Virus record (IMG/VR): IMGVR_UViG_3300005841_000939
Direction: 5' to 3' (one strand)
DNA length: 64,000 nucleotides
Origin: a virus
Taxonomy: Duplodnaviria; Caudoviricetes
Made by a program: the position numbers and the translations under genes. Positions 11,877-62,729 of this stretch are shown one piece after another. Numbering within the stretch: the first letter of the stretch is position 1; each line of letters opens with the position of its first letter. Under the pieces are notes generated by a model. The model was not told where the DNA came from. It saw only the letters and a program-made list of their open reading frames with translations, and searched no databases.

Positions 11877-12080
11877 ATGCTGCTCATGTCATCCAATGCG
11901 TTCCTCCCTCATCACCTTTCAGTCCTGAATGAACGTGGTGAAATCAACCGAGTTCAAAAAGGAGTGTTCATCAATGTCACCAAGGTTAATAAATCGTTGG
12001 TGCAAGTGAATTTCTCAAAGATTCAGGATGCTGAATTCATCGTGCAGCCCTCTCAGGAGGTGGTGGCTGGTGGGGTCTAA
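11877..12080 (+). CDS. hypothetical protein
   Basis: AAGGT RBS. Confidence 0.5.
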   Translation: MLLMSSNAFLPHHLSVLNERGEINRVQKGVFINVTKVNKSLVQVNFSKIQDAEFIVQPSQEVVAGGV

Positions 12081-12235
12081 CCCTGCCTTCACCTCGCGGC
12101 TGCCGTTAGTTATCATGCTTGAGGGTAGATGCAAGGATGAAGGTGAGAAGGAATGTCTACGGAAAACATCCTTGACTCCTAGAAAGAGTGTGCATGATGC
12201 GAGGTATCACCCATACCCATACAAGGGAAACGACC

Positions 12236-13021
12236 ATGACTGCTACTCTCATCGCCCACGCCGGATCGTATGTCGCCACCAAGGACCAGGTCTACGGCAG
12301 CAAGCCGGTGATGGATGCGTCCAAGACCTACGATCCCATCGGCCACGGACGCTTCGTGGACCTCATCGAGGAGGGCCTGGAGCGCAATAAGTGGAACGTC
12401 GCCAAGCGTTCCTACGCCCTCGGGAAGGAAGGCAATGGTCAGCTCTTCGGAGCGTATGACCTGGTCGCATCGGGCAACGCTGGCCACACGCTGTGTCTCG
12501 GCTTCCGCAACAGCACGGACAAGTCGCTGCAGGCTGGTCTGGCGTGCGGATCGCGTGTCTTCGTGTGCGATAATCTCGCATTCTCCTCGGACATCGTCAT
12601 CCAGACCAAGCATCGCGCCCACGTCCAGGAGAATCTGCCCAACCTGATCGACAAGGGCCTGGAAAAGTTCCTGATCGATGGCGCCGAACAGGAGAAGGAG
12701 TTCGCTTTCTGGAAGCAATTCCGGATCGATGTCGCTTCGGCCAGCAATCTCATCTGTCAGGCTGCTGAGGAGAAGGTGATCCATTCCGAACGTCTCATCA
12801 TCCCCGTGCGTGCTGAATTCATCAAGCCCCGTTTCAACGAATTCAATGACGGTGGGACGGCCTGGAGCCTGTACAACGCTTTCACCACGATTCATCGCCA
12901 TGTCCGTACTGATGTCGAGCCGGTGAACCAGTTCGGTGCGTTGAAGCTGACGCATGCGTTCATGCGCAAGGTGGCCCCGATGCCCAAGGAAACCACCCCG
13001 GCGGATGCGCTGGCCAACTGA
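12236..13021 (+). CDS. DUF932/DUF945-family protein
   Basis: LCLGFRNSTDKSLQAGLACGSRVFVCDNLAF and KH motifs. Confidence 0.85.
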   Translation: MTATLIAHAGSYVATKDQVYGSKPVMDASKTYDPIGHGRFVDLIEEGLERNKWNVAKRSYALGKEGNGQLFGAYDLVASGNAGHTLCLGFRNSTDKSLQAGLACGSRVFVCDNLAFSSDIVIQTKHRAHVQENLPNLIDKGLEKFLIDGAEQEKEFAFWKQFRIDVASASNLICQAAEEKVIHSERLIIPVRAEFIKPRFNEFNDGGTAWSLYNAFTTIHRHVRTDVEPVNQFGALKLTHAFMRKVAPMPKETTPADALAN

Positions 13022-13032
13022 GGCCAAACGAA

Positions 13033-13064
13033 AGATCCCTGGACTAACCACCCAGGGATTTTTT
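13033..13064 (+). terminator. intrinsic terminator
   Basis: ATCCCTGG..CCAGGGAT then TTTTTT. Confidence 0.85.
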
Positions 13065-13314
13065 ACCTGCAAAATTCCTGCGTTTTTTCAAGAATTTATG
13101 GCGGCTATCATGTTTTCTCTAGTTGTCAAGGAATCCTTTAAAAGTGGTTGCCTTATATAAGAAGAAAGGGGTCGTTCCGAACTGATTAGGAAGACCTACG
13201 AAATATTCCTTGACCTTGAAATAGAGGCATTAGATTGAACACATAACCCAAGCATGGGAAATGTAGCAAAGCTACCAAACCCCATGCGCAACTTCCCAAG
13301 AAAGGGAATGCATC

Positions 13315-13944
13315 ATGCGTAAGCTCATCTCTGTCCTCGTCGGTTCGGACACCAAGTACATCGGTGATCGCAACGGCTCCACCCTCGTCGCTCGCATGTC
13401 GGATGCCCATCGCTTCAACAGCGGTTCGGCCGAGCAGCGCGCCAAGGACTTCAAGTCCAGCGACTTCATCAAGCAGGCCGGTGGCACCACCCTGGTGGTG
13501 ATCGATGACGAGGGCAAGGCCAAGTCGGCCAGCGCCAAGGACGCGAAGGCCCCCAAGGCGAAGCGTGGTCGCCCGGCCAAGGCCACGACCGAGAAGGTCA
13601 AGGGCAAGCCGGGTCGCAAGCCCAAGGCCGAGAAGGTCGAGAAGGTGGCCAGCGGCAAGCGTGGTCGCCCGGCTGGTGCGGTCAGCGCCCTGATCGGCAA
13701 GCGCCAGATGGGCATGCTGATCGAGGACCTGAAGGCGGGGCTGCTCCCCTCGCTGCTGGAAGCGATCAAGGCCATCGTGATCCCCGCCCCGGCGGTGCCC
13801 GCGGTCGCCACCCCGTCGGCTCGTCGCGCCCCCGCCAAGGAAAAGGCCCAGGTCGCGGCCCCCGCGACGAATGCCCAGGGTGACCAGGCGAACGCCAGCG
13901 CCCAGGTCCAGACCCCGGCGACCAGCGGTACCCCGGCGGCCTGA
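13315..13944 (+). CDS. histone-like / AT-hook DNA-binding protein
   Basis: K/A/P-rich with KRGRP, KPGRKP, KRGRP; promoter TTGACC-N15-TAGATT at 13210-13236; most GC-rich gene in window. Confidence 0.75.
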   Translation: MRKLISVLVGSDTKYIGDRNGSTLVARMSDAHRFNSGSAEQRAKDFKSSDFIKQAGGTTLVVIDDEGKAKSASAKDAKAPKAKRGRPAKATTEKVKGKPGRKPKAEKVEKVASGKRGRPAGAVSALIGKRQMGMLIEDLKAGLLPSLLEAIKAIVIPAPAVPAVATPSARRAPAKEKAQVAAPATNAQGDQANASAQVQTPATSGTPAA

Positions 13945-13961
13945 TACAGCGAACTCGGCAA

Positions 13962-14004
13962 AGAGAAGCCCTGGGGTGTAAAAACCCTGGGGCTTCTCTT
14001 TTTT
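13962..14004 (+). terminator. intrinsic terminator
   Basis: GAGAAGCCCTGGGG..CCCTGGGGCTTCTC then T-run. Confidence 0.8.
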
Positions 14005-18393: not shown

Positions 18394-18469
<76 letters not shown>

Positions 18470-18542
18470 TATTCAAATGCTCTTTAGAGACAACGGATCA
18501 TACATTTGCAAGTAATTTAGGAGAGCAAATTCTCCTCAGCTC

Positions 18543-18631
18543 GGGCGAGTACCGGACTGTTCTTATAAAGCAGATTACCGTAATCGGTGGCGATAGTATC
18601 AATGTGGGTTCGAGTCCCACCTTGCCCACCA
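18543..18631 (+). tRNA. atypical tRNA-like element (UAU loop, no D-arm in normal position)
   Basis: 7 bp acceptor GGGCGAG/CTTGCCC, T-arm GTGGG-TTCGAGT-CCCAC, ACCA end; CTGTT-CTTATAA-AGCAG arm starts only 7 nt after the acceptor strand. Confidence 0.6.
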
Positions 18632-18665
18632 AAAAGGCGTTGATTTACTTCACTTGTATGATAAA

Positions 18666-18752
18666 CGGCTTGTGGCGGAATTGGCAGACGCGGGGGACTT
18701 AAAATCCCCTCCCAGCAATGGGGTGCGGGTTCGAGTCCCGCCGGGCCGACCA
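18666..18752 (+). tRNA. tRNA-Leu(UAA)
   Basis: cloverleaf with long variable arm, loop CT-TAA-AA, encoded CCA. Confidence 0.95.
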
Positions 18753-21970: not shown

Positions 21971-22142
21971 CAGGTCTCCATTCTAAGAACGCTTGGCATG
22001 TGTCAACAATACCTTCTTAACATGCATTTAAGCCTAGTCAAGAATTACCTTAGTATCTGATTAGACCTAAAAATGTTTATTGCTTTTTCACCTTAAGTCT
22101 TTACAGTCATCAACATACCAATCATACAGAAAGCGAATAATC

Positions 22143-24488
22143 ATGCTTGTAGCAACCAAGTCGGAACAAGTCGGTCGCCATGGGGAAATGAAAGTTTCCA
22201 CTCTGACCATCGATAATCCTGGCATGATGCTTGCGCACATGTTTGATACGATCTATACCAACAAGGCAAAAATCGTTGTTCAGGAGATCGCTTGCAATTG
22301 TCGCGATGCTCACAGAGAAGTAGGAAAGGCTGATGTTCCGATTACCATCAAGCTGCCGAACAAGCTTGACACTTCTTTGCAGTTCATTGATGAGGGTCCA
22401 GGCCTTTCTCCCCAACGAATCGATGCGATATACAACAGTGTCGGTGCATCTACCAAGCGCGGCAGCAACGATCAAACTGGCGGGTTTGGTATCGGATCAA
22501 AAACTCCTTGGTCCCTGACCAACATGTTCCTGGTCAAGACAACTGCCTGGGAAGGAGAAGGTGAAAATCGCGAATTGGTATATCGCGAATACACCATGCT
22601 CCGTGAAGGATTATTTTTCACTTGCAATCAAACTGGTGATCCTGAAGTGAAGGACCCTGCTCTGAATAAGAGCGGCACCATTATTGAAATGCAACTGGAG
22701 GAAAAGGAATGGCAGAATATTGAATCAGAAATTCAGAAAATCTTTATCTCATGGGATCCCAAGCCAAATATCCTTGGTTATTCTAGCGGTGAATGGGTTT
22801 GGAAAACCAGACTTGATCCGCTGTTTGAGGGAAAAGGTTGGAAAGTTTACAATGGTCAGGCTTATTACAATCACACGCATGTCTTCATGGACAATATTCC
22901 ATATCCGTTGGATTGGAGCGCAATGGAAACTGCGTTTGTCAGCTTGATGACTGATGTTTCAATTCCTGGAACTGCCACGGAAGAAATGAATGACATCGTC
23001 ATCAATAAGAACAATGATCCGATGACAAGTGCAAGAATTCGCACGTTGTGGCATCAGGCAGCAATCCTGCAAAATGTAACTTGCGGATTGTTCTTCAAGA
23101 CGGGTGAACTGGATCCCGCATTGAATCGTGAATCGTTGCAGTATACCCCTCAGACTGTTCGGCGCATTGTGGCTCGCATGTTGGCTGCAACTCAAATCAT
23201 CCTCACCACATATCAGAAAAAGGTTGAAGCTGCACCAACGTATGTTGCTGCATTGACCATGTGGAAGGAGTTGGCCAGCAACGTTATCAGAAATCTTATT
23301 TCAGGTTCGCGTGCCAACTGGCGGGGACTGCCTCTGAATACTGCCATGACGATTCACTTCCCTGAATCAGTCATTGTAAACAAAGTGATGCTCCGCAGTA
23401 ATTATAGCCGTCGCGCCAAGTTTTCAATGCGGCAAGAGGAAAGCATCAAACTGGAGGGAATTGATCAAAAGAAGCAAATTTTCGTCAACACTGGCTACAA
23501 CGAACGCAATGTACGCCATTACATGGAGCAAAATAACTTTGGTGGAAATAGCTATGACAGGGAATGCTTATATTTCCTGAGCTTCAAGCCAGGGTTCTCT
23601 GATCGTACTCTTCCACTCCCTGACATTGATGCTAAGGTCATGGAAGAAAGGTTCTTCAAGTCTGATCTATGGGTCGGTTTGGAACATGGTGGCAACAGTG
23701 ATCAGTTCCCGAAAAGGCCGATTATCAGAAATTCAGCAACGGGAAGTCGCGGACCGAAGAAGGATCCCCTCGCTGCCAATATATGGAATTCTGGTTTGAA
23801 GAAATTCCATGCATCTGATGTGATGCTGTCAGTTGACGAGGAAGATGAATCTGAGGATGCCGATCAAAAGGACATCGTCTATGTCTTGACTTTCCGAAAG
23901 GACTGCAACGAATTCAATGGCGACCAATTGAATACGTTGGAACATGCATTGAACATTTCCATCTATGGCGTTTCGGAACGCTTGAAGCATCGCATCCCTG
24001 ATCATTGGGTATCACTTGGGGAAAAGGCACGTGAATGGTTGTCTCAACAGCCTTTGGATTCAACTATCGCCGAATACATTCGCAAGCGCAATATCAATTC
24101 GGTGATGATCAATGCTTGCAAGGATATTTCTGCATCATTTGCAAGCATCATGGCAGATCCGGATTTGGAACAACTTGTCACTGCACCCGATTGGATTGAA
24201 ATGGCCCGTCTCTTCAAGACGACATTCAATTCAGAAACTCAATTGGATACGACTCCTGAATCCAATATCCTCAAGAAAATCAAGGACGTCAACAAAGTCC
24301 TGAGCAATCCACTGACGATTCCCGATATGCCTGAAGCAGAAGAAACCTCTCCTGAAGCAGAAGCTTTGAAAGCTCTGGTTGAAAAGTATTACTTGGTGAG
24401 GCAGGCTGCTGCAAGCTATACGCTTGATGCAACAGTGCTCAATCGCATCATTCCAGACCTGGCTATCTTCATTAATGCCAAAGGATAA
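22143..24488 (+). CDS. rIIA: rIIA-like protein (GHKL ATPase N-terminus)
   Basis: IYTNKAKIVVQEIACNCRDAH, DEGPGLS, STKRGSNDQTGGFGIGSK motifs; upstream of rIIB. Confidence 0.9.
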   Translation: MLVATKSEQVGRHGEMKVSTLTIDNPGMMLAHMFDTIYTNKAKIVVQEIACNCRDAHREVGKADVPITIKLPNKLDTSLQFIDEGPGLSPQRIDAIYNSVGASTKRGSNDQTGGFGIGSKTPWSLTNMFLVKTTAWEGEGENRELVYREYTMLREGLFFTCNQTGDPEVKDPALNKSGTIIEMQLEEKEWQNIESEIQKIFISWDPKPNILGYSSGEWVWKTRLDPLFEGKGWKVYNGQAYYNHTHVFMDNIPYPLDWSAMETAFVSLMTDVSIPGTATEEMNDIVINKNNDPMTSARIRTLWHQAAILQNVTCGLFFKTGELDPALNRESLQYTPQTVRRIVARMLAATQIILTTYQKKVEAAPTYVAALTMWKELASNVIRNLISGSRANWRGLPLNTAMTIHFPESVIVNKVMLRSNYSRRAKFSMRQEESIKLEGIDQKKQIFVNTGYNERNVRHYMEQNNFGGNSYDRECLYFLSFKPGFSDRTLPLPDIDAKVMEERFFKSDLWVGLEHGGNSDQFPKRPIIRNSATGSRGPKKDPLAANIWNSGLKKFHASDVMLSVDEEDESEDADQKDIVYVLTFRKDCNEFNGDQLNTLEHALNISIYGVSERLKHRIPDHWVSLGEKAREWLSQQPLDSTIAEYIRKRNINSVMINACKDISASFASIMADPDLEQLVTAPDWIEMARLFKTTFNSETQLDTTPESNILKKIKDVNKVLSNPLTIPDMPEAEETSPEAEALKALVEKYYLVRQAAASYTLDATVLNRIIPDLAIFINAKG

Positions 24489-25545: not shown

Positions 25546-25621
25546 GTACCTGTAGCTCAGTCGGAAGAGCGACAACCTTCTAAGTTGTTGGTCGTAGGTT
25601 CGAGTCCTACCAGGTATACCA
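25546..25621 (+). tRNA. tRNA-Arg(UCU)
   Basis: full cloverleaf, loop CT-TCT-AA, encoded CCA. Confidence 0.95.
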
Positions 25622-30038: not shown

Positions 30039-30194
30039 ATGCCCACGTCCTCCATCAGCGAACGCCTCAAACTCCACACTTCATTAGCCATGGAGCTTGT
30101 AGACGTAATTGATCAACTCAAACAAGATCCAGCTAATGAAGAGTTGAAAGCTCGGCGTCTTGAACTCCAAGCCCGCATTGATGAGTCAGCTTAA
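30039..30194 (+). CDS. small coiled-coil protein
   Basis: 51 aa; last + strand gene before the strand switch. Confidence 0.55.
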   Translation: MPTSSISERLKLHTSLAMELVDVIDQLKQDPANEELKARRLELQARIDESA

Positions 30195-30356
30195 AATATC
30201 CTTTCGGAATTGAAAGAATGAAGATTTTAAATTATTGATTTGCTCTGCATAAATTTTTAGATGATCATATCTACTATTGCGATGATATAAGAATCCAACG
30301 AAGGCTACATTTTGTCCCTCTACATTACTTAAATCTGGTTCAAAAATATATTTCAT

Positions 30357-30563
30357 TCAATATCCTGACAGCATGTTGAATCGTTTTCGGTCATCTAAGA
30401 AATCCCGAACAATATCTGATATAGATTTTGGTTCAATCAATGGATGATCATACCTATTGTTTTGTTGTTCTAATATAAAAGGAAACATAACATCAATACC
30501 ATATATTGATTCAAAATCTTGTATGGCTTCTTGAGTGTATTTTATTTTCATGATTCTATTCAT
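30357..30563 (-). CDS. KxxR-family protein (divergent)
   Basis: QNNRYDH. Confidence 0.5.
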   Translation of the reverse strand: MNRIMKIKYTQEAIQDFESIYGIDVMFPFILEQQNNRYDHPLIEPKSISDIVRDFLDDRKRFNMLSGY

Positions 30564-31291: not shown

Positions 31292-31492
31292 TCATATATA
31301 TTTCTTTAGTATAAAACTTTCCCAGGTATAAACCATATCACTAATATCATAAGTAATTATGGAATGTCTGGATTCTTTTGGTAAGGCTAATAAGTTTTGA
31401 GTAAAAAAGAAAAAATTATCCCATTCAGGACTGTCCCGTTCAAATACTAACGGAACTCTAATAAATTCATTTATTTGAATCCTATTTGCCAT
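31292..31492 (-). CDS. KxxR-family protein
   Basis: KESRHS..TWESF. Confidence 0.65.
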   Translation of the reverse strand: MANRIQINEFIRVPLVFERDSPEWDNFFFFTQNLLALPKESRHSIITYDISDMVYTWESFILKKYI

Positions 31493-31847
31493 ATACGTAA
31501 TTCAAATGGTAAATATCACCAGCACTGGTACCACGTCTAGGATATACTTTCTTTCTACCATTCATGAAACAATCAACAACTTCTTTCCATGTTGATTTAA
31601 TTAATCTCTTCTTGTATTCCTTTGTGTAATCATATCGGTTATCTGTAGCATCCAAATCCATTACAGGATCACCACCCATAGGCTGAACACTTATTAAATC
31701 TTCTATAACTAAAGAAGGGAATGACTGCATAATAGTCGGAAATGCCATGCTATCAAACCCACCAATAGTAGTATTAGGCTTTTTTAAATCATCAGCCCAT
31801 TGTTGTGTATTCTTTAATAATTCGTCTATGTTACTCATTATCTCCAA
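31482..31847 (-). CDS. chimera: T4-type major capsid fragment plus KxxR module
   Basis: GFDSMAFPTIMQSFPSLVIEDLISVQPM and GDIYHLNYVYG flank TDNRYDY..KSTW. Confidence 0.8.
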   Translation of the reverse strand: MEIMSNIDELLKNTQQWADDLKKPNTTIGGFDSMAFPTIMQSFPSLVIEDLISVQPMGGDPVMDLDATDNRYDYTKEYKKRLIKSTWKEVVDCFMNGRKKVYPRRGTSAGDIYHLNYVYGK

Positions 31848-32389: not shown

Positions 32390-32734
32390 TTAACCTAAAT
32401 TAATTTTATAGGACTGAGTATTATCAAACAATATCTCCATAAGCTTTGCAGTACTATTACGCTTTATATGTCTTTCTGCATATCTTTCAACTAGTGATTC
32501 CCATGTAATCTCTATGTTATCCTTTCTATATGTTTTTAAGAAAGGTGAATATCCATACCGTGTTTCTTTATGACTATAAACTAATTCACCATATTTCCTA
32601 GCAACAGCTTTTGGAATAGGTCTATCACAGGAAACTAATTCAGATGGAATAAAATTTGGAAAAGGGGCATTAACTGTCGGGAAATGTATATCATCAAAAC
32701 TCATTTTAAATTTCCTTTTGCAGCATATTTCCAT
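32390..32734 (-). CDS. chimera: degenerate capsid fragment plus KxxR module
   Basis: FDDIHFPTVNAPFPNFIPSELVS then KETRYGY..ITWESLVERY. Confidence 0.7.
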   Translation of the reverse strand: MEICCKRKFKMSFDDIHFPTVNAPFPNFIPSELVSCDRPIPKAVARKYGELVYSHKETRYGYSPFLKTYRKDNIEITWESLVERYAERHIKRNSTAKLMEILFDNTQSYKINLG

Positions 32735-32898
32735 CTAGATTCGGATATTAAATTATCCCATGTTGCTTTAACATTACCAGAATCATAATTATATCCTTTG
32801 TAATTGTTTCGGGTTTCTTTAAGAAATAAATCAATAAATTTGTAAGAAACATCAAATTCTCTTAAATAAATTCCTGGTTTTATATAATTTGTACTCAT
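32701..32898 (-). CDS. chimera: tail-sheath-like N-terminus plus KxxR module
   Basis: YIKPGIYLREFDVS then KETRNNY..ATWDNL. Confidence 0.72.
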   Translation of the reverse strand: MSTNYIKPGIYLREFDVSYKFIDLFLKETRNNYKGYNYDSGNVKATWDNLISESRWKYAAKGNLK

Positions 32899-40156: not shown

Positions 40157-40383
40157 TAAACTAAACCTTTAAACTCTATTCCATTATCGGAATCTTTATA
40201 CATAAAAAAGGATTTAGAATTATTCAGGAAAAGAAATTTAGTTAATATATATTTCCACTTGTTGTTTATTTGTTTAAACGAATCGGATTTATAGTTTTCT
40301 CTATATTCTTTTGTTAAAAATGCTGAAATAGATATAGATACAGGATCTATCGGGAAGTTTTCCATAATTATTTTTCTAAACAA
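40156..40383 (-). CDS. KxxR-family protein
   Basis: KEYRENY..KWKYILTKF. Confidence 0.65.
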   Translation of the reverse strand: MFRKIIMENFPIDPVSISISAFLTKEYRENYKSDSFKQINNKWKYILTKFLFLNNSKSFFMYKDSDNGIEFKGLV

Positions 40384-40735
40384 AATTTAATAATTTATAA
40401 TTGTGATTTTTTAAGATTGAATATCGTGATCGTAAACCTATATTTGGTTTTATGTCTTCTTTCTTAAAAAAATTAATAATTAAATTTTGCCAGGACTCTT
40501 TGATAGTGTTTAATGCATATTCTGATTTAAAATTATTTCTATTTTCTTTATTTAATTCAATTTCATAAACAGAATTATTGAAATTAATTGGCACATATGG
40601 AGCATAAACATAACCAACATCCCAAGTATCATCAAACCTTTTTGTATATTTTAAAACATCATCTTTTAAAATATTTAATATTTCATCTTCTATTTCTTTT
40701 TTATATTTTTCAACAAGCTCATCAATATTTTTCAT
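40376..40735 (-). CDS. chimera: telescoped T4-type capsid C-terminal motifs plus KxxR module
   Basis: EIEDEILNIL, DVGYVYAPYVPI and KPNIGLRSRY around KENRNNF..ESWQNL. Confidence 0.8.
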   Translation of the reverse strand: MKNIDELVEKYKKEIEDEILNILKDDVLKYTKRFDDTWDVGYVYAPYVPINFNNSVYEIELNKENRNNFKSEYALNTIKESWQNLIINFFKKEDIKPNIGLRSRYSILKNHNYKLLNFV

Positions 40736-49529: not shown

Positions 49530-49734
49530 TAAAAATCCAATGTTTTTTATGAGTCTCTATTATTTCTTCTATTGTATACCCCAAAGATTGTATATGCAAA
49601 TAACCATTTGGTAATACCGAATAATTAGGTATAGTATCTGGAAAATTCTTTAAAAACAATTCAGGATATGCTTTCCAAGAAGCGTACTGATGTCTGTTGA
49701 TTTTATTTTGGAGAATAAGATTTGTTAATATCAT
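49516..49734 (-). CDS. KxxR-family protein
   Basis: KINRHQY. Confidence 0.7.
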   Translation of the reverse strand: MILTNLILQNKINRHQYASWKAYPELFLKNFPDTIPNYSVLPNGYLHIQSLGYTIEEIIETHKKHWIFNEKS

Positions 49735-50180
49735 AAATCATATTGCCATTCTTTTCCTGCTTTAAATCCATATTTAAGATATGCTGCTTGAGCTTTCATG
49801 TTGGTATCTTCAACAAACAACGTCAGTTTATCACACCCTTCAGCTATGGCTATCTTTTTGCAAGCATCTAGCAGTCTCATTAAGTGACCTCTTCGTCTAA
49901 ATTCTTGTGCAATAATGACACCGTCAATATATAAATTTTTGGCGTTTCTCCAATCACTAAATTTAAATGATGCTCTCAGACATCCAACATAATTTTCTTC
50001 ATCTTCAGCGATCAGATAAAATCCATGTTCAGCAGTTTTTGCATTAAGAATTGTTGTTATTCCATCAACTAACTTTGGAGGAATTTCATTATATTCTTCC
50101 ATTGCCAAATTATATTGGAGGAAGATTAATGGGGTTAAATGTTCTATTGTAGCTCTGCGTATTGTCATAATATTATTCAA
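49731..50180 (-). CDS. GNAT acetyltransferase
   Basis: LYIDGVIIAQEFRRRGH motif A; LFVEDTNMKAQAAYLKYGF motif B. Confidence 0.9.
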   Translation of the reverse strand: MNNIMTIRRATIEHLTPLIFLQYNLAMEEYNEIPPKLVDGITTILNAKTAEHGFYLIAEDEENYVGCLRASFKFSDWRNAKNLYIDGVIIAQEFRRRGHLMRLLDACKKIAIAEGCDKLTLFVEDTNMKAQAAYLKYGFKAGKEWQYDL

Positions 50181-59850: not shown

Positions 59851-60795
59851 TTATACTGGCGTTGTATGACCTTGAGCTAGGGCTGTCTCAAGGGTAGTAC
59901 AATCAAAGCGATCAATGTATGCAATCGTATCGTCTTTAACGATGACAATCAAAGGATCTTTTGGCTTAATTTCACTGGTGGCTCCTACAGTCTTCCAATC
60001 AGCTTCAACAATCAATTTAACTTCGCCACCTACAGAGTCTGCAATTTCTTTAGCCTCAATTATTGTTTTCTTTGCATTTTCAGGTATTAATCCTGGTACA
60101 TGCGTGACAAACTTCATACGAACATCTTCACTATCTTTGAAACTATTGTAATGTTTTATGCCAAAATTTGCCCAAGCTAAACATAGACAAGGGAGTAATA
60201 AAACCAAACCAAAAAATACTAATGGTCCAAGGCCACCAGCACCAGTTGTTATTCCAGAATATAGCATTATTCCTGCAATAATGCAACCAATTATACCAAG
60301 TATGAAATTTGATGTAGCACTTATATCGTTTAAGCTAAACCAGGATTTTGTGTAATTTATTGAAACATTAAACCATGATTGAACATTGGTTCTTAAACGC
60401 AATTCGCCAGACATTGAAATATCAGCGTGAACGCTCAATCCACCACGATCAATTGCATCAGAACCTAACTCAGGCCAATTTTTCAAATCAGTGATTGGCT
60501 GTTTAAAAGGATTTATCATTGCATAAACTGGTAAATCAACAATCAATGAAGGACGAGTTTCAAATGAAACTGTTTTCTTTTTCATTTTCTTCAAAATAGC
60601 AGGTTCAATATATTTTATTTTAGTATCATATCTATCTTGAACTGTTTGAAGCCACATATTGGCAACATCAAATTCTTTCTTTGAGTTTGTGAAACATTCT
60701 TCACATGGAAGTAGATTTTTAAGCTCAACTTGAGGCTTACTAACCTTAATATATTTAGTTTTGGAAACAACATCATCAAGAACATTAGTAGTCAT
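59851..60795 (-). CDS. two-TM membrane protein, paralog 1 of 3
   Basis: LLPCEE, PGLIP, LIVEADWK, DPLIV, DRFDCTT..QGHTTP. Confidence 0.85.
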   Translation of the reverse strand: MTTNVLDDVVSKTKYIKVSKPQVELKNLLPCEECFTNSKKEFDVANMWLQTVQDRYDTKIKYIEPAILKKMKKKTVSFETRPSLIVDLPVYAMINPFKQPITDLKNWPELGSDAIDRGGLSVHADISMSGELRLRTNVQSWFNVSINYTKSWFSLNDISATSNFILGIIGCIIAGIMLYSGITTGAGGLGPLVFFGLVLLLPCLCLAWANFGIKHYNSFKDSEDVRMKFVTHVPGLIPENAKKTIIEAKEIADSVGGEVKLIVEADWKTVGATSEIKPKDPLIVIVKDDTIAYIDRFDCTTLETALAQGHTTPV

Positions 60796-60837
60796 AATTG
60801 TATTTCTTTCAGAATTTTCTTGTATATCAAGAAAAAA

Positions 60838-61755
60838 TTATAGAGGAGTTGTGTAGCCTTGGGCCAAAGAAGTTTCAAGGGTTGTGCAATCAAAACGATC
60901 AACGTAGAAAATCATATTATCTTTAATGAGAACAATAACAGGATCTTTTGGAAGTATTTCGCTTTGTTGAAGTTTCCAATCAGCTTCAACTATCAAGCGA
61001 AGTTTGCAACTTTCTCTTCTATCATAATCACTCTGATCAGCAAAATCTCTTAATTCTTTTAACTTATTTTTAACATCTTTTGGAATTAGACCTGGAATTC
61101 TAGTTATAAACTCAAATTTTGCATAAACATCTTTATATAAAGTATTTTGAGTCAATCTGTAAACATTTGACAAAATATTTATTAGACCAACACTTCCTAC
61201 TGAAATTCCAACAAGTAAAGAAGTAAACGAATAGCTTAAAAAGAACATGAACAATACAGAAGCCAAAACAATAATTGAACCTACTATAATATTACTTTTA
61301 ATGCTCAAATCATCAAACAAATTAAAGAATGGTGTATAATTTTTGAAAGATGGTTGAAAGAAATGGCTTAAATTTGTCTCAAATTCTACTGACGTGTTTG
61401 CTTTTAATGACAACCTTCCAGTTAATTTACCAGTATCAGTACCGTTATGAATATACGTACCTTCTTCTACTCTTTTAAATGGATCAATGAACGCATAAAC
61501 TGGCAAACCAATCTTTAAAGAAGGATTGTCAGGAAATGTTACTGTATATTCTTTATTTTTCTTAAGGATTTCTGGATGCAAATATTTCAACTTGTGACCA
61601 AACTTATCTTCAAATCGTTTCAACCACTTAAAATCTATGTTGTTTGGTACATCAACCAAACCTTCTTCACATGGAAGAATATCTTCAGTACTCTTCACAT
61701 CCTGAACTGGAATAACTGAAACAATAACATCTTCAAGGGTTGGTGCAATATTCAT
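60838..61755 (-). CDS. two-TM membrane protein, paralog 2 of 3
   Basis: ILPCEE, PGLIP, LIVEADWK, DRFDCTT..QGYTTP. Confidence 0.85.
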   Translation of the reverse strand: MNIAPTLEDVIVSVIPVQDVKSTEDILPCEEGLVDVPNNIDFKWLKRFEDKFGHKLKYLHPEILKKNKEYTVTFPDNPSLKIGLPVYAFIDPFKRVEEGTYIHNGTDTGKLTGRLSLKANTSVEFETNLSHFFQPSFKNYTPFFNLFDDLSIKSNIIVGSIIVLASVLFMFFLSYSFTSLLVGISVGSVGLINILSNVYRLTQNTLYKDVYAKFEFITRIPGLIPKDVKNKLKELRDFADQSDYDRRESCKLRLIVEADWKLQQSEILPKDPVIVLIKDNMIFYVDRFDCTTLETSLAQGYTTPL

Positions 61756-61796
61756 ATGGGTATTCTCTCACGAAATAGTTATTTACCAAATTGTTT

Positions 61797-62729
61797 TTAA
61801 ACAGGGGTGGTGTGGCCTTGAGCAATCAAATTCTCTTTGGTGGTGCAATCAAAACGATCAATATAAGCAATCGTATCACCTTTGACGATAACAATGATTG
61901 GATCTTTATTTTCAGGTATGATAGTTCTTTCAACACGGCTAACTTTCCAATCAGCTTCAACAATCAAATAAAGTTCACCACCAACATTTTTTGCAACTTT
62001 TGTTGCCTTTTCAATTTTCTTTTTAGCATCTGGTGGAATTAACCCTGGAAGCATAGTGGAAAAATGTAACTTACATCTTTCATTTTTGACAAATGTATTT
62101 TTATGTAAGTTAACAACAGAAGGAATTGCAAATAAACCACCAAAAATAGATGCAATGCCAGCAATACAAGAAACCAAAACTCTAAGTGGAGTTTCATCAC
62201 AAAATTTAAAAATGGAAAATACAGCTATTGCTGAAACAGCTAGTATAATTGTTCCTGTTATAAAGTTTGCAACAGTTGACATGTCGTCATTTAATAACCA
62301 ATTTTCTTTAACTTTCACATCAACAGTATTTAATGGATGATGTGAAGTATCAACTTTGGATTCTCTATCTCTATCACTAGTAATTTCAACGGTTATTCCG
62401 CCTCGCCGTTGTAAATCATTTCCATAATATTCATCAGTTGGATTTATTGAAGGTAAATGTGGATCAATCAACGCAAATTCAGGTAAACCAATTTTAAGTG
62501 CTTGACGACCTTTTATTTTTATTGAATGATTTTTTGTCCCTTTCAATACTTCTGGATGAAATTTTCTGATTGGGGCGCCATATTCTTTTTGAACAAGTTT
62601 TAACCATTCATTGCTATTCTTCTTGTGATTTTCGCTGAAATGTCTTTCACATGGAAGAAGATTTTCAACAATATGATCTTCAACTAATTCAGAGGAAGTT
62701 TCAATAAGATTTGCGAGAGTAGAAACCAT
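61797..62729 (-). CDS. two-TM membrane protein, paralog 3 of 3
   Basis: LLPCER, PGLIP, LIVEADWK, DRFDCTT..QGHTTP. Confidence 0.85.
   Translation of the reverse strand: MVSTLANLIETSSELVEDHIVENLLPCERHFSENHKKNSNEWLKLVQKEYGAPIRKFHPEVLKGTKNHSIKIKGRQALKIGLPEFALIDPHLPSINPTDEYYGNDLQRRGGITVEITSDRDRESKVDTSHHPLNTVDVKVKENWLLNDDMSTVANFITGTIILAVSAIAVFSIFKFCDETPLRVLVSCIAGIASIFGGLFAIPSVVNLHKNTFVKNERCKLHFSTMLPGLIPPDAKKKIEKATKVAKNVGGELYLIVEADWKVSRVERTIIPENKDPIIVIVKGDTIAYIDRFDCTTKENLIAQGHTTPV

Follow-up and report, generated by a model that had tools for sequence, protein, structure and literature searches.

A 119-residue protein with a gp23-like C-terminal block in the tiny-gene array of a T4-related phage, a putative capsid-fragment competitor

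Among the many very small genes in an AT-rich stretch of phage DNA there is one, encoding a protein of 119 residues (called P0001 in the following), in which pieces reminiscent of the C-terminal end of a T4-type capsid protein can be recognised. This raises the question of what such a gene could be: a shortened capsid protein, a leftover from a capsid gene, or a functional small protein that makes use of a capsid segment. The preliminary description of the locus proposed a telescoped mini-capsid, in which three capsid motifs are arranged around a KxxR module. We have considered these possibilities using the whole 64,000-nucleotide stretch of DNA from which the gene comes (IMG/VR record IMGVR_UViG_3300005841_000939, called the window below). 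On the basis of the sequence comparisons, P0001 is best described as a chimeric mini-protein that originated from the 3' end of a capsid gene, has been maintained and putatively acts as a fragment competitor, and we estimate the probability of this reading to be roughly one half.

The window consists of two halves with different base composition, one with a GC content of about 44% and one AT-rich with about 27%. P0001 is a member of a long array of head-to-tail tiny ORFs (Table 1), which is flanked by rIIA (22080-24488), a protein kinase, a PP2C phosphatase and a vWA protein. The best explanation for the element that harbours the gene is a T4-related rhizosphere phage of roughly 380 kb, with the array as part of its AT-rich accessory region. 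The gene call recurs on independent assemblies, and the exact protein is found, with unchanged gene calls, on contigs as long as 379,560 bp. The DNA of the gene is identical in contigs from three rhizosphere metagenome runs, that is, it is without variants, and there are no RNA runs among the sequencing runs listed for it. There are overlaps of 14 nt with the ORF upstream and of 8 nt with the one downstream, and translation confirms both the ORF of P0001 and all the strings that had been quoted from it. P0001 is a genuine small gene, one of a long row of tiny genes that are apparently co-transcribed. Scans for promoters and terminators performed no better than shuffles in the AT-rich DNA here, and a megablast search of the surrounding DNA (39-43 kb) against phage records returned no match. 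For the protein itself, the ESM Atlas gave nothing above 0.8 and NCBIfam nothing relevant.

Table 1. Features of the array and of P0001, with positions counted from the first letter of the window.
Feature	Position	Strand	Remarks
Array of 91 head-to-tail tiny ORFs, P0001 included	30186-54911	−	median 77 aa, 96% coding, ~27% GC
P0001, 119-aa ORF	40376-40735	−	translation; single Met
Predicted N-terminal helix (MKNIDEL...), aa 1-32	40640-40735	−	AF2 helix aa 4-32
Claimed first motif KKEIEDEILNILK, aa 12-24	40664-40702	−	contains KKEIEDEIL; not capsid-like above chance
Capsid-like core DDTWDVGYVYAPYVPINF, aa 35-52	40580-40633	−	T4 gp23 445-456, profile positions 364-378
Second motif DVGYVYAPYVPI, aa 39-50	40586-40621	−	aligns with the DAGxxYAPYVPL block of gp23-type capsid proteins
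Array signature module (K-E-N-R-N-N-F ... I-K-E-S-W-Q-N-L), aa 62-95	40451-40552	−	module HMM aa 56-95 or 62-95
NFKSEYAL, aa 68-75	40511-40534	−	alternative third motif (GFKTRYGL), near-native spacing
KPNIGLRSRYSI, aa 96-107	40415-40450	−	third motif of the preliminary description, downstream of the module; within the Pfam alignment span
ORF 31482	31482-31847	−	121 aa, paralog-like; aa 8-72 on the capsid N-terminal region including the ..P.L.a.D..gVQPm block
ORF 30357	30357-30563	−	68 aa; aa 3-25 (RIMKIKYTQEAIQDFESIYGIDV) on the capsid block R.lKA.Y..E..QD...hG.D
Capsid-profile match of P0001	40376-40735, residues 36-75	−	profile 364-401; 21.2 bits, E 1.3e-5
Capsid-profile match of ORF 31482	31482-31847, residues 11-72	−	profile 57-113; 15.8 bits, E 5.8e-4
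Capsid-profile match of ORF 30357	30357-30563, residues 3-25	−	profile 194-216; 15.1 bits, E 9.4e-4

The link between P0001 and the capsid protein is made by the second of the three motifs. The best Pfam match of the protein is Gp23 (PF07068), with an E-value of 2.5e-4 and a score of 21.0 bits, where aa 35-110 are aligned with positions 310-351 of the 376 in the model. We also constructed a capsid profile of our own, with 434 nodes, from 39 gp23-type proteins (nine from diverse phages and 30 phiM12-like), and ran it on all 1782 pieces that a six-frame translation of the window yields. Three pieces scored, all of them array ORFs, and each one matched a different conserved block of the capsid protein. 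For P0001, the highest score among 5000 shuffles was 8.9 bits, as compared to the observed 21.2. When the alignment of P0001 with its only homolog (P0002, see below) is compared by hhalign with a 15-sequence capsid alignment, columns 35-74 fall on columns 365-402 with a probability of 87.8% and an E-value of 3.3e-6. In an alignment to a T4-type gp23 (RB10), the second motif corresponds to residues 445-456 and the third to residues 467-478. A tblastn search of 50,697 phage records gave 12 weak matches, eight of them at the C-terminal end of major head proteins, including those of RM378 and the phiM12 group. The profile alignment to gp23 that had been proposed as a check thus supports the second motif. 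It is important to keep in mind that the resemblance covers a short stretch of about 16-40 aa. No capsid protein was reached when P0001 was searched against 1.84 billion representatives, and the PDB, queried with the sequence of P0001 as well as with a profile of P0001+P0002, did not return T4 gp23 or any capsid chain even at E 10.

The first motif, on the other hand, which had been read as EI(D/N)REI, is at chance level. A sub-profile of the capsid spine helix gives P0001 a score of only 1.8 bits (E 6), and 12 of the 464 ORFs in the window score higher. This means that the description of P0001 as a telescoped capsid protein with three motifs does not hold; two motifs remain. These two do occur in the order found in the C-terminal part of gp23-type proteins, with the DAGxxYAPYVPL block followed by an IGxxTRYG-like one, just as had been proposed.

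For the third motif there are two placements. The one at NFKSEYAL, which is given by BLAST, by our own profile and by hhalign, is nearly ungapped. The one at KPNIGLRSRYSI, which was the choice of the preliminary description, comes after an insert of ca 34 aa and is preferred by Pfam, whose alignment of aa 35-110 with model positions 310-351 implies the layout with a long insert. Truncations of the protein give Pfam Gp23 scores of 11.8 bits for aa 1-60 and 21.9 bits for aa 30-119, which means that the long-insert path adds about 10 bits. When aa 59-92 are excised in silico, the score increases from 21.2 to 32.4 bits with the full profile and from 26.3 to 34.0 bits with a C-terminal profile. The controls for the latter value reach at most 31.0 bits (120 shuffles of aa 57-119) and 30.3 bits (200 shuffles of aa 95-119). 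As a separate domain, KPNIGLRSRYSI alone scores 1.3 bits, and the same excision applied to P0002 gives no significant result, with 16 and 48 of 200 shuffles equalling the observed score. The earlier assignment of the third motif holds therefore in part: none of the 200 tail shuffles reaches the score (p ~0.01), but the rival NFKSEYAL is located inside the span claimed for the module. The layout in which the third motif follows an inserted module is plausible, at a little above even odds.

P0001 is, however, outside the Gp23 family. Its Pfam score (21.0 bits, or 21.9 for aa 30-119) is below the gathering cut-off of 24.4 bits, and instead of a full HK97-type subunit it covers positions 310-351 of 376 in the Pfam model and 364-401 of 434 in our profile. 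Both C-terminal blocks are present in order, the first one strong and the second one with p ~0.01 and two placements. The known gp23 major capsid proteins and their vertex paralogs, gp24 (PF07068, HK97 fold; structures 6uzc, 7vs5 and 5vf3, and 1yue for gp24) have the DAGxxYAPYVPL and TRYG-like blocks in the same order, but they are 390-560 aa long, whereas P0001 has 119 residues, no spine helix, no P domain and no N-arm, and bears in addition the unrelated array module. An HK97-fold subunit is thus impossible. The AF2 model obtained for P0001+P0002 has an overall pLDDT of 45, and the N-terminal helix at aa 4-32 alone has ca 70.

We turn now to the module itself, in which the string KENRNNF..IKESWQNL occupies aa 63-85 (40481-40549). 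The pattern K/R-x-N/T/S-R-x-x-Y/F is found in 16 of the 91 array ORFs, while 1.4 are expected and the maximum in 1000 shuffles is 8, and it is present in no other ORF of the window. The suggested KxxR module between the last two motifs is thus a real shared element. In most cases the signature is located at residue 2, as in MKENRQTY, and its usual carriers are ORFs of 50-80 aa. An iterated module profile collects 21 members, among them P0001 with aa 62-95 (E below 0.01), and with the signature, the downstream hydrophobic/W block and its position as a tiny minus-strand ORF in the array, P0001 belongs to the array family. The arginine codons of the signature and its flanks vary, which excludes a DNA-level repeat and shows that the conservation is at the protein level. 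Descent of the module from the capsid tail (KTRYG...) was also considered and discarded (hhalign probability 0.07%). Two origins fit the facts, namely insertion of the module in a capsid fragment, at a hairpin loop, or fusion of a 62-aa capsid-fragment ORF to a 57-aa array unit. Nearly all of the array ORFs are orphans. There are several small paralog groups, and when all 91 are compared with Pfam and PHROGs at E 0.01 or better, the result is one GNAT acetyltransferase and the Gp23 match of P0001. By coordinate mapping, the acetyltransferase is most likely the ORF at 49731-50180 on the minus strand (Acetyltransf_1, best E 5.7e-16).

The other two ORFs that scored against the capsid profile are ORF 31482 and ORF 30357. 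For the former, the maximum score in 5000 shuffles was 13.0 bits (observed 15.8), and for the latter it was 6.0 bits (observed 15.1). ORF 31482 forms a pair with the ORF at 32390, and hhalign aligns columns 8-60 of this pair with columns 35-97 of the capsid alignment with a probability of 89.5%. It had been proposed that ORF 31482 covers a capsid region different from that of P0001, and this is what we find (profile positions 35-113). The NIDEL start that the two ORFs were said to have in common is also there: P0001 begins with MKNIDEL, and ORF 31482 with MEIMSNIDEL if read from a TTG or with MSNIDEL from an internal ATG, such that the two N-termini resemble each other. The two proteins are in fact co-linear, with a module at a similar offset (E 0.001) and similar total length, while their middle parts match different capsid regions. 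For such apparent paralogs, either segment swapping or independent capture of the capsid pieces is needed. The sole Pfam match of ORF 30357 is again Gp23, at E 0.12. Judged from these scores, three capsid-like matches in one window cannot reasonably be due to chance.

Some further observations were made on the neighbours of these ORFs. The ORFs at 31482-31847 and 32390-32734, both on the minus strand, are paralogs (BLASTP E 4.7e-5) with capsid-N-like N-terminal halves and the array module at the end. In 30357-30563, the capsid-like part is followed by an NNRYDH motif, which is also present in the neighbour at 30186-30356. The minus-strand ORF at 32701-32898, with the N-terminus MSTNYIKPGIYLREFDVS, was considered as a tail sheath fragment, but a tblastn search against phage records gave weak matches and no annotated sheath gene, and this assignment was abandoned.

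The comparison with homologs gives information about how the capsid block has been conserved. In the 1.84 billion representatives there is one relative of P0001, a metagenomic protein of 73 aa called P0002 (E 6e-4), and word-index searches, started from P0001 or from its alignment with P0002, found these two proteins and no others. P0002 is encoded on a 677-bp contig that also has overlapping tiny genes. It starts with MKGTVSWDVGYVYCPYIPLHF, which is followed by ..EKETRQDY.. and ..IEVTW.., and its sole Pfam match is Gp23 (E 3.3e-3), at the same model positions as for P0001. The KG-x4-D-x-G spacing in P0002 is that of the YKG....DAG block of the capsid proteins. In the capsid block (aa 38-52), 11 of 15 residues are identical between P0001 and P0002, as compared to about 33% overall, and in this contrast of two sequences the capsid block is thus preferentially conserved. 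Two uncultured huge phages that are related by their kinase and rIIA genes, LR756511 and LR756500, have gp23-type capsid proteins. That of LR756511 has DSGYFYCPYVPL at the capsid block, and in single BLASTP comparisons it matches P0002 with an E-value of 2e-6 and P0001 with 4e-4. In LR745208, related by the kinase gene, no gp23-type capsid match was found.

These data bear on the alternative that survives best, which is that the capsid pieces are neutral debris. The array would in this case be a gene nursery that picks up capsid scraps through illegitimate recombination or loss of stop codons, and the block in P0001 would be without a role and simply not yet erased. We consider this account doubtful, but it has a number of points in its favour. 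The ORFs of the array are orphans, a single homolog of P0001 turned up in billions of proteins, and the GNAT enzyme is the only convincing Pfam or PHROG match in the array. The usual N-terminal position of the module in ORFs of 50-80 aa makes P0001 look like a 62-aa ORF that has become fused to a 57-aa unit. Furthermore, profiles detect the most conserved blocks alone, so that the picture is partly one of detection bias. On the other hand, neutral decay does not predict that the capsid block should be the best conserved part of P0001 and P0002. It is also found that the fragments detected among the 91 ORFs are all capsid-like, with no other family represented, and that the frame of P0001 is intact and tightly packed.

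Another alternative is that P0001 is not derived from a capsid protein at all, and that its aromatic and proline-rich strand (GYVYAPYVP) and its RY tail have arisen by convergence or chance. The sub-threshold Gp23 score and the absence of a solved T4 gp23 chain at E 10 would be in line with this, as would the fact that MAFFT can align the block of P0001 with a different proline-rich block of ORF 31482. Very many windows were screened, and rare chance matches are therefore expected somewhere. However, the E-value of the match is a window-wide one and the shuffles stay far below the observed score, P0002 adds the upstream KG of the YKG-x4-D-x-G spacing, and two more array ORFs match other capsid blocks with E-values below 1e-3. 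The joint probability of this by chance is negligible even across hundreds of thousands of windows, and the hhalign probabilities are 88-90% for both pairs. Taken together, these results make a non-capsid origin improbable.

We return to the reading of P0001 as a chimera derived from the capsid gene. The protein consists in this reading of an N-terminal helix, some 20-40 residues from the 3' end of a gp23-type capsid gene, the array module and a tail that has a second TRYG-like block, with the capsid piece corresponding to about residues 445-478 of T4 gp23. In gp23, the A-P linker is made up of aa 486-502 and the axial A domain is the core of the capsomer (PMC9546572). The segment in question is located just ahead of this linker, in the A domain. 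The AF2 model of the capsid alignment has a pLDDT of 39.5. The matched segment is probably core A-domain structure that is conserved for that reason, and it may be no recognition surface.

What we propose is that the capsid block is kept by selection and that the mini-protein may function as a fragment-type competitor. P0001 would then offer the capsid segment to whatever binds this segment in the unassembled capsid protein. Candidate partners are a host sensor of the capsid, a folding helper, or capsid subunits, which may belong to the phage itself or to a T4-like phage infecting the same cell. To our knowledge, no recogniser of the C-terminal strands of the capsid protein has been described. 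That P0001 acts as a true mimic of the capsid is unlikely in our view, albeit worth keeping in mind.

There are known systems with which this proposal can be compared. The Gol region of T4 gp23 activates the Lit protease of e14 via EF-Tu; it is the most conserved part of gp23, and the free Gol peptide is active on EF-Tu and Lit (review PMC3014915). This is a precedent for a short conserved capsid peptide that is active alone, and the alignment of ORF 31482 spans the N-terminal segment in which Gol apparently lies. P0001, in contrast, corresponds to the other end of the capsid protein, the C-terminal one, and does not have the ..RR..PNLIA.D..GVQPM.. block that characterises Gol-type peptides, which is instead matched by ORF 31482. 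Moreover, the free Gol peptide turns a defence on and blocks none. Both Lit and CapRel have been reported to sense the capsid protein via short motifs (bioRxiv 10.64898/2026.01.04.697583). It is also known that engineered protein fragments can inhibit their parent proteins, as demonstrated with high-throughput inhibitory fragments (PMC11831152). Such fragments, and microProteins, resemble P0001 in concept, as one piece of a larger protein titrates partners or poisons assembly; those cases are, however, engineered or eukaryotic, while P0001 has an additional shared module. A literature search found no paper on natural capsid-fragment mini-genes.

One more option is that P0001 is an accessory factor for the phage's own head assembly, which docks on the capsid subunits by strand complementation and holds or times assembly, or is carried in the head, without being directed at the host or at rival phages; the location of the segment in the A domain, the capsomer core, and the requirement of T4-type capsid proteins for dedicated folding help (PMC9546572) would agree with this, but the gene lies among AT-rich accessory mini-genes near rIIA/rIIB, the kinase and the phosphatase, and not within a cluster of head genes, and its family is nearly unique to this phage, unlike assembly factors, which makes this option very improbable.

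If the competitor reading is extended to the other two ORFs, the array could be seen as a natural library of fragment mimics, in which a common module presents short, invariant pieces of the capsid protein. ORF 31482 would contribute the N-arm/Gol block, ORF 30357 the QD..hG block, and P0001 the last strands of the A domain. The mini-proteins would be made ahead of the real capsid protein, and could blunt host sensors of capsid motifs or poison the capsid assembly of competing T4-like phages. This wider scenario is rather speculative, and we do not expect it to be correct.

If the capsid block of P0001 is indeed kept for its function, it would follow that phages make free-standing copies of those pieces of their shell protein that vary least. 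These pieces are the ones that bacterial immunity can read, as in the cases of Lit and CapRel (bioRxiv 10.64898/2026.01.04.697583). This would represent a simple and evolvable path to counter-defence or to interference between phages, and it would provide a handle on the role of the tiny orphan genes in giant phages. Should the block instead be debris, the case still documents that mini-gene arrays recruit pieces of core genes.

Finally, a few features of the window outside the array can be mentioned. Three tandem paralogs of about 305-314 aa (59851-62729, minus strand), with the kinase/PP2C pair on one side and the vWA gene on the other, have 34-37% mutual identity and no Pfam matches. At 12001-14000, the GC content peaks at 58% in surroundings of about 44%, and long overlapping ORFs are present on both strands. 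There was no clear sign of stop-codon recoding in the first 30 kb of the window. Genes for tRNA-Lys(UUU), tRNA-Leu(UAA) and tRNA-Arg(UCU) are located on the plus strand at 18394-18752 and 25546-25621, and these tRNAs read codons ending in A or U, which are expected to be common in the AT-rich array.
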